A stretch of 64,000 bases of DNA from Escherichia coli (lineage in GTDB: Bacteria > Pseudomonadota > Gammaproteobacteria > Enterobacterales > Enterobacteriaceae), in the NCBI RefSeq assembly GCF_003334355.1, contig NZ_QOWP01000004.1, one strand, 5' to 3'. Within the stretch, counting starts at the first letter, position 1; the number at the start of each line of letters is the position of its first letter. The position numbers were made by a program, and so were the translations under genes. Below are positions 61,154 through 64,000 of this stretch, in pieces. Under the pieces are notes generated by a model. The model ran no database searches, was not told where the DNA came from, and worked only from the letters and a program-made list of their open reading frames with translations.

Positions 61154-62755
61154 TCAGGATACCACTGGCGCAATTTGTAACTGCACCGACTCATGTCGTG
61201 CTACTTCATGTTCTTCAAGGGTAAATACCGCCACACGCGACGAAAGATGGTCGGCCTGATTCGCCAGTTGTTCCGTTGCCACCGCCGCTTCTTCTACCAG
61301 CGAGGCGTTCTGCTGAGTCACCTGATCCATCTGGCTGACAGCCTGTGCAACCTGCTCAATCCCCCGCTGTTGTTCTTCCGACGCAGAGGCAATTTCTCCC
61401 ATAATGTCGTTCACGCGGGTCACCGAACTGACAATATCGATCATGGTCGCGGCGGCGTTATTCACCAGTTTCGAACCCTGCTGGACACGATTGACTGACT
61501 CTTCGATCAGCCCTTTGATCTCTTTTGCTGCCTGCGCGCTACGGCTGGCAAGATTGCGCACTTCACCTGCCACTACCGCAAAACCACGCCCCTGCTCTCC
61601 GGCGCGAGCCGCTTCCACTGCCGCATTCAGGGCCAGAATATTGGTCTGGAAAGCAATTCCGTCGATAACGCTGATAATGTCGCCAATTTTTTGCGAGCTG
61701 GTGGCGATCTCCTGCATGGTGTGAGTCATGGTACTGACCTGAACACCGCCCGCCTGCGCCGTTGTCGCGGCATTTTTTGCCAGTTCCGACGCCTGTCGTG
61801 CGTTATCGGCGTTTTGCCCTACCGTGGCGGTTAATTGCTCCATACTGGCGGCCGTTTGTGCCAGCGATGCCGCCTGCTGTTCGGTACGACTTGAGAGATC
61901 GTTATTGCCTGCGACAATCTCCGCGATACCAATGTGCATCTCCTGGCTTCCCTTACGCACATCACTTACCGTCCCACGCAAAGCCTGCTGCATGGTCTTC
62001 AGACTGGCAAAAATGGCGGTGATCTCATTACGACCATATACCGCAATCGGACGCGCCAGATTACCCGCAGCAATGCTGTCAAAATGGCTACCGATAATGG
62101 CCAGTGGTTGAACAATCATCTTGCGCGTCCACCACAGCGCACTGCTGATGTAGATCGCCGCAACAATAATCATGCTGATAAACACCAGTGCCGAAATCTG
62201 ATAGTTACGCTGGCTTTGCGCACTGGCGGCTTCCAGCACATGGTTGATCTCCAGCTGCCAGGCCTCAAAGTTAACGTCAAACGCATTCTGTGATCCCTGC
62301 ACCGGCGCAGTGAGGAAATCCGAAAGTTGATTACTTTCAAGCCAGGTCGCCTGATGTTCGAGATCGTTGTGCCAGCGGGCAAAACTTTTCTCCGTCTCTT
62401 TTTGCAATGCCCTGACGTGCTCGTTGCCCGCAGTCATCGCCATAAAACTTTTAAACAGCGTGGTGGATTGCGTCAGACTGGCGCGCGCCGTCGTCATCAA
62501 CGTTTTAATGTCATCCGCCGGATAGCTAAGTGCCGTCAGAGTGCCCGCTTTGTTCAGCGCGGTACTGGCCTGTAACATTACCGCCCGAGTTTGCGCTAAT
62601 GCCGCACGTTGCTGATTGCTCTGCTCGACCTGATTCAGTCGTTGCAAATCGTCGCGAAATGCCCAAAAAGACATGCCGTTACTGCCAATCTGCAAGATCC
62701 CGCAGAGAATCAAAATTAAAAACAGCGTGGTCGAAATTCGAATACGATTAAACAT
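61154..62755 (-). CDS. tap: Tap, methyl-accepting chemotaxis protein IV (dipeptide/pyrimidine)
   Basis: ATG at 62755 gives 533 aa starting MFNRIRISTTLFL; MCP signalling domain. Confidence 0.95.
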   Translation of the reverse strand: MFNRIRISTTLFLILILCGILQIGSNGMSFWAFRDDLQRLNQVEQSNQQRAALAQTRAVMLQASTALNKAGTLTALSYPADDIKTLMTTARASLTQSTTLFKSFMAMTAGNEHVRALQKETEKSFARWHNDLEHQATWLESNQLSDFLTAPVQGSQNAFDVNFEAWQLEINHVLEAASAQSQRNYQISALVFISMIIVAAIYISSALWWTRKMIVQPLAIIGSHFDSIAAGNLARPIAVYGRNEITAIFASLKTMQQALRGTVSDVRKGSQEMHIGIAEIVAGNNDLSSRTEQQAASLAQTAASMEQLTATVGQNADNARQASELAKNAATTAQAGGVQVSTMTHTMQEIATSSQKIGDIISVIDGIAFQTNILALNAAVEAARAGEQGRGFAVVAGEVRNLASRSAQAAKEIKGLIEESVNRVQQGSKLVNNAAATMIDIVSSVTRVNDIMGEIASASEEQQRGIEQVAQAVSQMDQVTQQNASLVEEAAVATEQLANQADHLSSRVAVFTLEEHEVARHESVQLQIAPVVS

Positions 62756-62800
62756 CAACGCTCCCCATCAGGCGGCAATGACCGCGTTAGTAAATACTCG

Positions 62801-64000
62801 TCAAAATGTTTCCCAGTTTGGATCTTGTTCAGCAATTCGCAGTCGTGGCTGTGCCGGTGGTTGCTCACTGGCAGGACGGGATGGTGTTTGCGGTTTATTG
62901 GTGAGTGGGCTGGCTGCCAGACGGAACGCGGAAACCGCTTGCGTTAAACGACTCGCCTGTTCTTCCAGCGCAGCGGCGGCGGCAGCTGATTCCTGCACCA
63001 GCGATGCGTTCTGTTGCGTGACGCGATCCATTTCCGAAACCGCCAATGCGACTTGATCGATGCCACGGCTCTGTTCATCCGATGCCGATGCAATCTCGCC
63101 CATAATGTCAGTCACGCGAGTGACAGCATTGACGATATTGTTCATTGTTTCCCCGGCGCTTTCGACCAGCACCGAACCGGTATCAACGCGTGAGACGGAG
63201 TCTTCAATGAGGGCTTTGATCTCTTTTGCCGCCTGGGCGCTGCGACTGGCAAGATTACGCACTTCACCCGCCACCACGGCAAAACCACGGCCCTGTTCAT
63301 CCGCACGCGCGGCTTCGACCGCGGCATTCAGCGCGAGGATATTAGTCTGGAAGGCAATACCGTCGATAACGCTGATAATGTCGGCAATTTTCTTCGAACT
63401 ATCGGCGATCTCATGCATCGTTTTCACTACGCCATCCACCACTTTGCCGCCGTGCTGGGCGGTGTCGGAGGCACTTTGCGCCAGTTGCGAGGCCTGGCGG
63501 GCGTTATCGGCGTTTTGCTTCACTGTCGCGGTGAGCTGCTCCATGCTGGCGGCAGTTTCTTCCAGCGCGGATGCCTGCTGTTCAGTACGGGAGGAAAGAT
63601 CGGTGTTGCCCGCCGCAATTTCACGGGTACCGGCATAGATGGCATCTGAACCTTCGCGGACATGAGTGACGGTGTCAGTCAAAGAGCGTTGCATATGTGA
63701 AACGCTCTGCGCCAGGTCGCCCATTTCACTGCGCCCGTCAATGGTCAGGGTATTCGCCAGGTTACCACCGGCGATTTCGCGAATGTGAGCAATAATTTTT
63801 GCCAGCGGAGTAAGCAACATACGGCGAATGCCGTACCACGCCACCAGCAGAATCAATACCACCACCAGCGCGATAACCGCCAGTTGCCACTGGGCAAATC
63901 GGTAATCATCTGCGTTGTCAGTGACGATATCGCGATACAGTTTTTCACTGCTGAGGGCGTACTGAGCAAACGCTTCGCCCATTGCATTTTGCATTCCCTG
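62801..64000 (-). CDS. tar: Tar, methyl-accepting chemotaxis protein II, C-terminal ~400 codons (N-terminus beyond window end)
   Basis: Ends ...EQDPNWETF (NWETF pentapeptide); open frame continues to the window edge. Confidence 0.95.

Follow-up and report, generated by a model that had tools for sequence, protein, structure and literature searches.

The tar-tap Locus

The window, the whole stretch of 64,000 nucleotides analysed here, ends within a chemotaxis operon: its minus-strand reading frames from 58164 to 64000 follow the order tar, tap, cheR, cheB, cheY, cheZ with short spacers, and RefSeq annotates the corresponding part of MG1655 in this order too (Table 1). The preliminary description took tap and tar for tandem paralogues, and this holds: they are adjacent chemoreceptor (MCP) genes on the same strand, recognised by their NCBIfam profiles and by the 99.8% nucleotide identity of cheR-tap-tar to E. 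coli K-12 MG1655 (6 differences in 3726 nt), with which the window agrees in genes, order, strand, spacing and NWETF contrast. The window alleles differ from those of K-12 by Tar G388D, Tap G116A and CheR A203V, and the window's tar is incomplete at the edge. A literature search for Tsr G390 gave no match.

Tap matches the NF007309 equivalog from end to end (residues 1-533 on profile positions 1-533) and, at 1182.5 bits, lies above the cut-off of 903; G116A is its single amino acid change from K-12, and at least 1000 contigs carry the identical protein. One codon before the tap ATG, at 62758, there is an in-frame TTG. The window edge at 64000 leaves the initial 154 codons of tar outside, and because of these missing codons, the Tar fragment stays below the cut-off of NF011622 (846.2 bits against 900, on profile positions 156-553). 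We accept it as methyl-accepting chemotaxis protein II on this match and on its near identity to K-12 tar, from which the 1200 nt differ at four sites, one of them non-synonymous. A contig identical to the window (100% over 7 kb) codes for a complete Tar of 553 aa with TarH, HAMP and MCPsignal domains.

The pentapeptide NWETF is the docking site of CheR and CheB, present in the high-abundance receptors Tar and Tsr and absent in the low-abundance receptors Tap and Trg. The translations divide the two proteins along this line, as previously described, with Tar ending in ...DPNWETF and Tap in ...QIAPVVS, without the pentapeptide.

Table 1. Features of the cheR-tap-tar region, in window coordinates
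Feature	Position	Strand	Remarks
cheR	60275..61135	-	next operon gene downstream of tap; directly after the hybrid gene in fusion strains
tap CDS, methyl-accepting chemotaxis protein IV	61154..62755	-	533 aa counted from ATG; ORF and translation
Microhomology CCTGATTC, 8 bp	left 61255..61262; right 62629-62636		bounds the deletion of 1374 bp within tap in Nissle/B2-type strains
Shared core, tap copy (methylation helices and hairpin tip)	61296..61921	-	local alignment, blastn
Third-longest identity block, 16 bp	tap 61513..61528; tar 63214..63229
Longest identity block, 24 bp, CCGTCGATAACGCTGATAATGTCG	tap 61659..61682; tar 63360..63383		crossover interval of fusion allele A (ET474, PEC389)
Second-longest identity block, 18 bp, GCGTTATCGGCGTTTTGC	tap 61800..61817; tar 63501..63518		crossover interval of fusion allele B (ETEC4088)
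tar-tap intergenic spacer	62756..62800		45 bp
tar CDS, methyl-accepting chemotaxis protein II	62801..64000	-	3' 1200 nt, codons 155-553 and stop
NWETF codons, Tar C-terminus	62804..62818	-	translation ends ...EQDPNWETF, then stop
Shared core, tar copy	62997..63622	-	1701 bp from the tap copy, reading-frame register kept

A Diverged Repeat Shaped by Protein Constraint

Local alignment of tap with tar gives a core of 627 columns with 74% identity, and blastn aligns 634 nt at 74.3% (E = 5e-111). Both strings that the preliminary description quotes for the two genes were found unchanged, at 61548 and 63249. The copies, however, are offset in register by 1701 bp and not by about 1.65 kb, and "near-identical" overstates the likeness of a core in which no uninterrupted match exceeds 24 bp; the quoted pair itself differs at 5 of 44 positions. 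Identity rises to 80% in 100-nt stretches of the core and to 80-84% in the best 90-nt windows, where the third codon positions are just 43-63% identical. The similarity is nonetheless far above chance: eight of the nine longest exact matches share one common offset, and the longest, of 24 bp, compares with a mean of 10.2 and a maximum of 14 in shuffled controls. Around the hairpin tip, 30-codon windows are up to 97% identical in protein sequence, which explains why the DNA looks alike by eye; the sensing halves of Tar and Tap share about 22-30% of their amino acids.

Adjacent genes with the same orientation and register are natural candidates for ongoing gene conversion, and the fusion alleles described below demonstrate that tar and tap do exchange sequence; concerted evolution could thus be what keeps the signalling domains alike. 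The comparison with tsr, which in MG1655 lies unlinked to tar at about 4.59 Mb, speaks against this, as the similarity of tar to tsr equals or exceeds that to tap in all core segments, synonymous codon choice included, and adjacency has no effect. In the hairpin segment, nucleotide identity is 75.9% for tar-tap versus 78.9% for tar-tsr, identical residues share their codon in a fraction of 0.57 versus 0.55, and the longest exact match is 24 versus 28 bp. The low third-position identity of tar and tap points the same way, as do the core polymorphisms, of which 10 are toward the base of the paralogue, 20 away from it and 27 neutral, with no clustering, although 12 alleles per gene give this test limited power. 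On the paralogue comparison and the direction of polymorphism, we reject gene conversion as a very unlikely explanation. Since an unlinked gene is at least as similar to tar as its neighbour is, we take the sequences to indicate that the tar/tap similarity is a matter of protein constraint, not of recent duplication or conversion.

Natural tar-tap Fusion Alleles

The window itself carries both genes intact and without a tar-tap fusion and is thus the substrate of a possible exchange, not its product. With a synthetic tar-tap fusion as the query, the product was found in 3 of 5,426 complete E. coli genomes, as an in-frame fusion that lacks exactly 1701 bp and codes for a Tar-Tap protein of 535 aa. 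All three strains (ET474, PEC389 and ETEC4088) match the query in a single piece at 100%, and in each, the fusion gene is annotated as a single "tar" of 1608 nt, with cheR directly after it. There are two alleles, one with the switch in the 24-bp block (allele A) and the other in the 18-bp block (allele B), and 803-804 of the 805 informative sites are consistent with one tar-to-tap switch. The natural junctions, at Tar codons 315-321 and 360-368, retain the HAMP domain and the first methylation helix of Tar. Junction-specific queries find exactly two complete genomes for allele A and one for allele B; the latter query also hits one low-coverage record at 95-99% identity. The isolates are wild, from frog and pig, and the alleles are established in lineages. 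The few records labelled "plasmid" among the matches of the E. coli searches are Mb-sized or several hundred kb long, and we regard them as chromosome pieces, not as plasmid-borne copies.

Assemblers can collapse repeats, and alleles as rare as these might be suspected of being artefacts created when two homologous genes are merged. We find this extremely improbable. The repeat, with its 74% identity and perfect matches of at most 24 bp, is far too weak to collapse in assembly; the reading frame runs on through clean junctions; and the same 535-aa proteins recur on 71 and 28 contigs from independent assemblies of different laboratories and sources. In the wider assembly collection, the two fusion proteins appear in at least 140 and at least 58 blocks, invariably between cheW and cheR, and allele A is found on two distinct upstream haplotypes.

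Under a uniform distribution of crossovers along the core, the probability that the two independent events both fall within the two longest blocks would be about 0.0045; this association of crossover position with block length is drawn from n = 2 fusion events. In O157:H7, the longest identity block is one of 28 bp, at tar nt 1222. No natural crossover was found in the 16-bp block among the fusions of the 5,426 genomes. The reciprocal product was searched for with a synthetic tap(N)-tar(C) hybrid, which retrieved nothing above 90.1% identity, the top matches all being ordinary tap, and no tandem duplication with a crossover in the core was seen in the 5,426 genomes. The junction of tar 3' with tap 5' occurs at up to two places per genome.

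A Common tap Deletion of Different Origin

Most of tap is missing in about 20% of the genomes (1,059 of 5,426; the Nissle/B2 type), and as the preliminary description had predicted deletions, this widespread loss in uropathogenic and B2 strains might be credited to unequal recombination between tar and tap. Mapping of the breakpoints refutes this, and we give the idea practically no chance of being right: both breakpoints, 61263 and 62636, lie within tap at the 8-bp microhomology, 1374 bp and not 1701 bp are removed, tar remains whole with its NWETF, and 5' and 3' remnants of tap persist. The one junction common to all 1,059 genomes points instead to a single short-homology deletion. The proposal that the direct repeats give rise to fusions and deletions is thus borne out by the rare alleles that lack 1701 bp, with crossovers inside the 24-bp and 18-bp blocks, and fails for the common loss of tap, which is unrelated to tar/tap exchange. 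Overall, the earlier observation is partly confirmed and its interpretation supported with qualifications.

Discussion

Very probably, tar and tap are old tandem paralogues whose signalling halves have been kept alike by selection on the protein and whose short islands of identity permit rare exchange. The anatomy of the repeat, its lack of homogenisation and the natural fusion alleles with the intervals of their crossovers are directly observed; the enzymatic pathway and the behaviour of the fusions are inferred. Within the E. coli tar-tap-cheR-cheB-cheY-cheZ operon, the sensing halves of the two old paralogues have diverged, and selection on the methylation helices and on the hairpin tip, which contacts CheA, CheW and other receptors, has very probably preserved the similarity of the signalling halves. 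At the DNA level, the outcome is a direct repeat of 627 bp with 74% identity, its copies 1701 bp apart and in frame, with perfect islands of 24, 18 and 16 bp that probably suffice for rare tar/tap exchange. The exchange may proceed through RecA-dependent recombination restricted to a perfectly matched segment or through RecA-independent slipped misalignment or replication template switching, routes that the sequences do not tell apart; either would remove exactly 1701 bp and leave one in-frame gene. We favour a short-homology mechanism over the "unequal recombination" of the preliminary description, as mismatch repair should be a strong barrier to classical homologous recombination at 74% identity. 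The missing reciprocal duplication fits an intramolecular or slippage mechanism, or the loss of duplications, and proves neither.

The hybrid combines the sensor, transmembrane and HAMP parts and the first methylation helix of Tar with the C-terminal arm and tail of Tap. Such a receptor should keep the sensing of aspartate and maltose and lose that of dipeptides, and the NWETF tether for CheR and CheB is gone. That the natural fusions represent selected rewiring of chemotaxis, rather than mere decay, strikes us as unlikely. If it were so, a receptor expressed from the tar position without the NWETF tether, together with the loss of dipeptide and pyrimidine sensing, might alter adaptation kinetics or the composition of the array, to the benefit of some animal-gut lineages; this would explain the persistence of each of the two independent fusions in dozens of isolates and the spread of one fusion to a second flanking haplotype.

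Textbooks cover the tar/tap pair, the conservation of its signalling domain and the contrast in NWETF, and the recombination itself is already known, given that tar-tap hybrids from the laboratory were described in 1987; searching the literature for phrases on a fusion, hybrid or deletion of tar and tap returned no match. What we add is modest: the exchange has occurred at least twice in wild E. coli, its crossovers lie in the two longest perfect blocks, of 24 and 18 bp, within a repeat of otherwise 26% divergence, and automated annotation calls the fusions ordinary "tar". With that label, surveys of receptor repertoires will score such strains as Tar-positive and Tap-absent and overlook that CheR and CheB no longer have their tether on the aspartate receptor.

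Comparison with Known Systems

The hybrids of 1987 reportedly arose from spontaneous deletions, through recombination between the homologous 3' ends of tar and tap. The natural alleles resemble those hybrids in that a deletion between these regions joins 5' tar in frame to 3' tap; they differ in coming from wild isolates (frog, pig) and being established in lineages, whereas the earlier hybrids were laboratory isolates of K-12. A Tar-Tap chimera engineered in 1998 is said to sense aspartate and to signal and adapt poorly unless an NWETF tail is added. The natural fusions likewise attach the sensing domain of Tar to a signalling domain of Tap that lacks NWETF; the engineered junction, however, is in the membrane-adjacent linker and the natural ones are much further along (codons 315-321 and 360-368). 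In PMC2229510, functional chemoreceptor chimeras are credited to Slocum, Halden and Parkinson (1987, J Bacteriol 169:2938), and the engineered Tar-Tap and Tap-Tar chimeras to Weerasuriya, Schneider and Manson (1998, J Bacteriol 180:914).

The loss of tap in phylogroup B2 and uropathogenic E. coli (Lane et al. 2006; Borziak et al. 2013; as summarised in PMC3559539 and PMC12623472) shares with the fusions the locus and the loss of Tap function, but there an internal deletion of 1374 bp at an 8-bp microhomology has left tar untouched and created no fusion. Nonallelic homologous recombination (NAHR) of low-copy repeats, for which a minimal efficient processing segment sets the limit (reviewed in PMC2583991), has in common with our cases that breakpoints lie at the longest uninterrupted identity and that deletions fuse paralogous genes. 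The tar/tap repeats are far more diverged than its usual substrates, with 74% identity, and their identity blocks, of 18-24 bp, are far shorter; for these reasons, replication slippage appears at least as likely as NAHR to have joined tar to tap.

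The tap–tar repeat

The window ends with genes of the chemotaxis cluster (see table), and positions 60275–64000 found a match in each of the 5,426 complete E. coli genomes screened, MG1655 being 99.8% identical to the window across this region. RefSeq names the MG1655 counterparts cheR, tap and tar, the latter two encoding methyl-accepting chemotaxis proteins IV and II (MCP IV and MCP II); Tap scores above the NCBIfam MCP IV equivalog cut-off (1182.5 bits vs. 903), and the Tar fragment aligns with positions 156–553 of the MCP II model. The translations end in NWETF in Tar and in IAPVVS in Tap, the contrast drawn in the preliminary description.

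Features of the tap–tar region (window coordinates unless stated)
Feature	Position	Strand	Remarks
cheZ, cheY, cheB, cheR, tap, tar	window end	minus	ORFs
cheR	60275–61135	minus	
tap	61154–62755	minus	533 aa
tar	stop codon at 62801 to window edge	minus	codons 155–553 only
Core, tap copy	61296–61921		74% identity to tar copy
Core, tar copy	62997–63622		74% identity to tap copy
24-bp identity block	tap 61659–61682 / tar 63360–63383		longest
18-bp identity block	tap 61800–61817 / tar 63501–63518		second
16-bp identity block	61513 (tap) / 63214 (tar)		third
CCTGATTC copies flanking the Nissle/B2-type deletion	61255–61262 and 62629–62636		L001 (Nissle) 3474–3488
19-nt quasi-repeat in tar	63063–63081 and 63285–63303		222 bp apart; ccacggctctgttcatccg and ccacggccctgttcatccg

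The preliminary description saw tap and tar as tandem paralogues with near-identical segments about 1.65 kb apart, quoting two strings that we found verbatim at 61548 (tap) and 63249 (tar); the register of the repeat is, however, 1701 bp, the offset common to eight of the nine longest exact matches. The likeness itself is real (blastn identity 74.3% over 634 nt, E = 5e-111; longest exact match 24 bp vs. at most 14 bp in shuffles), but "near-identical" overstates it: the shared signalling-domain core is merely 74% identical, and its uninterrupted identical blocks do not exceed 24 bp. The best 90-nt windows reach 80–84%, third codon positions agree in only 43–63% of cases, and in-register identity drops to 31–49% beyond the core. 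The proteins are 58% identical over 360 aligned residues, with up to 97% at the hairpin tip.

Similarity between neighbouring copies may stem from conversion or from constraint, and we compared K-12 tar and tap codon by codon with each other and with the unlinked tsr (4.59 Mb in MG1655). In the hairpin segment (Tar 331–420), nucleotide identity is 75.9% for tar–tap and 78.9% for tar–tsr, and the share of identical residues using the same codon is 0.57 and 0.55; the longest exact match over the whole gene is 24 and 28 bp, respectively, and in the C-terminal arm (Tar 421–515), tar is clearly nearer to tsr (75.4% vs. 61.8%). In the core, polymorphisms among 12 natural alleles per gene change toward the paralogue's base in 10 cases, away from it in 20 and to neither in 27, and show no clustering. 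Going by the tsr comparison and the polymorphism directions, being neighbours has not homogenised the copies; their likeness is the trace of selection on a common signalling module in old paralogues.

Natural tar–tap fusions

Direct repeats of this kind had been proposed as substrates for unequal recombination creating tar–tap fusions, and the suggested screen of the complete genomes uncovered three. A query sequence in which cheR and the 3′ part of tap were artificially joined to the 5′ part of tar at the 24-bp block gave single uninterrupted matches in ET474 (frog, China) and PEC389 (pig, Korea), both at 99.9% identity, and in ETEC4088 (pig, Belgium) at 97.5%. In each, RefSeq has one 1608-nt gene named "tar" between cheW and cheR. 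K-12 tar and tap, aligned in register, differ at 805 positions; at 803–804 of these, the fusion genes fit one switch from tar-type to tap-type. The switch lies inside the 24-bp block in ET474 and PEC389 (allele A) and inside the 18-bp block in ETEC4088 (allele B), and queries specific to these junctions found exactly two and one complete genomes. Two independent events thus fell on the two longest identity blocks; were crossovers uniform along the 626 bp of the core, both would fall there with a probability of ~0.0045. The deletions remove exactly one repeat period, and the products are in frame, running from Tar residue 1 to ~315–321 or 360–368 and then through Tap to IAPVVS. The best match to a query for the reciprocal tap–tar hybrid, the duplication product, had at most 90.1% identity.

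The two 535-aa fusion proteins occur on 71 and 28 contigs; an index of the wider assembly collection lists them in 140 and 58 blocks, and the gene order is flhDC-motAB-cheAW-[fusion]-cheRBYZ every time. They pass as plain tar because both exceed the MCP II cut-off of 900, with 1049 and 1004 bits. Of the allele A contigs, L016 is set apart from the others (L015) by 46 sites in 13.6 kb, 43 of them between flhD and tar nucleotide 192 (L016 1–6192) and three downstream. This distribution puts allele A on two different upstream haplotypes and indicates a recombination boundary shortly after the 5′ start of the hybrid gene; either the allele moved by recombination to a second flanking haplotype, or its own upstream flank was replaced.

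The longest in-register block varies by lineage, from 24 bp in K-12-like genomes and 21 bp in several others to 28 bp, at another position (tar nucleotide 1222), in O157:H7 (L026), so each lineage would be expected to have its own preferred crossover site. A junction of tar 3′ and tap 5′ was reported in up to two copies per genome in one search. A few E. coli matches fell on plasmid-labelled records, but these, at roughly 0.4–4.9 Mb in PLSDB, are mislabelled chromosome pieces or whole chromosomes.

Other losses of tap

A search with cheR–tap–tar left three classes among the 5,426 genomes: 4,321 with the full locus, ~1,060 covering merely 63–64% of the query and ~40 with cross-hits to other receptors only. 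The second class, exemplified by Nissle, lacks 1374 bp inside tap, with breakpoints at 61263 and 62636 in the 8-bp microhomology CCTGATTC; a junction-specific query found the identical deletion in 1,059 genomes (19.5%). The tap gene is not wholly gone in these genomes, as 5′ and 3′ remnants persist, the 130-nt 5′ one annotated as a pseudogene. Exchange between tar and tap is excluded as the source, as both breakpoints lie within tap and tar is intact; the deletion is the Tap loss previously known from phylogroup B2 and uropathogenic strains (PMC3559539, PMC12623472). Independently, tap carries an internal stop in O145:H28 RM13514 (L028 1480–3081; annotated pseudogene), and in another contig (L009 3381–4982), it is broken into ORFs of 137 and 382 aa.

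A quasi-repeat within tar

Compared with PSS-12, its closest complete genome, the window has two differences in 3.7 kb, CheR A203V and Tar G388D, both nonsynonymous and both in chemotaxis genes. G388D (GGT to GAT at 63300, tar codon 388) turns the hairpin-tip motif AGEQGRGF, otherwise identical in Tar and Tap, into ADEQGRGF. K-12, Nissle and PSS-12 have G at this position; D388 is a real allele, found also in three contigs (L010, L012 and L013), each 100% identical to the window over 6–7 kb; the haplotype recurs, unchanged over 7 kb, in independent public assemblies. The change probably impairs Tar signalling. CheR A203V (60528, cheR codon 203) belongs to a CheR protein found in exactly this form on 12 contigs, and this protein is also paired with the wild-type Tar G388 in L009 and L011, which have other backgrounds.

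Codon 388 lies in one copy of a 19-nt quasi-repeat, the copies encoding DEQSRG and G/DEQGRG. Read off the sequence, G388D lifts their match from 17 to 18 of 19 positions, a gain that may have been templated or may be coincidental. Three complete genomes (strains 673, PI24 and 472) have an in-frame 222-bp (74-codon) deletion in tar whose ends are exactly the two quasi-repeats; the product, on 10 contigs, is a RefSeq "Tar ligand binding domain-containing protein".

Proposed mechanism and relation to known hybrids

The substrate seen is a direct repeat, in register, with short perfect blocks; the exchange pathway we infer. At 26% divergence, mismatch repair should stop extended heteroduplex, so an exchange would have to resolve inside an identical block. 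One route would be RecA-dependent recombination with a minimal perfectly matched segment, reportedly put at ~23–27 bp for E. coli by Shen and Huang in 1986. Another would be RecA-independent slipped misalignment or template switching, reported by Lovett and colleagues for short repeats that lie close together. The concept of the minimal segment has been reviewed (PMC2583991). That no reciprocal duplication turned up lends mild support to a route that is intramolecular or tied to replication.

The expected phenotype is drawn from laboratory tar–tap hybrids (Slocum 1987) and engineered chimeras (Weerasuriya 1998), publications that PMC2229510 cites. The fusion receptors should retain aspartate and maltose sensing, as the sensor half is that of Tar; dipeptide taxis should be lost with the periplasmic domain of Tap, and, NWETF being gone, methylation and adaptation should rely on neighbouring Tsr.

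The tandem paralogues, their conserved signalling domain and the NWETF contrast are established knowledge, and the recombination idea was reportedly demonstrated in 1987 by Slocum with spontaneous laboratory deletions. The literature searched, which covers a minority of the relevant journals, gave no description of natural tar–tap fusions. To the known story, we claim to add only a small part: the existence of natural fusion alleles, the position of their crossovers within the longest identity blocks and the fact that annotation conceals them.
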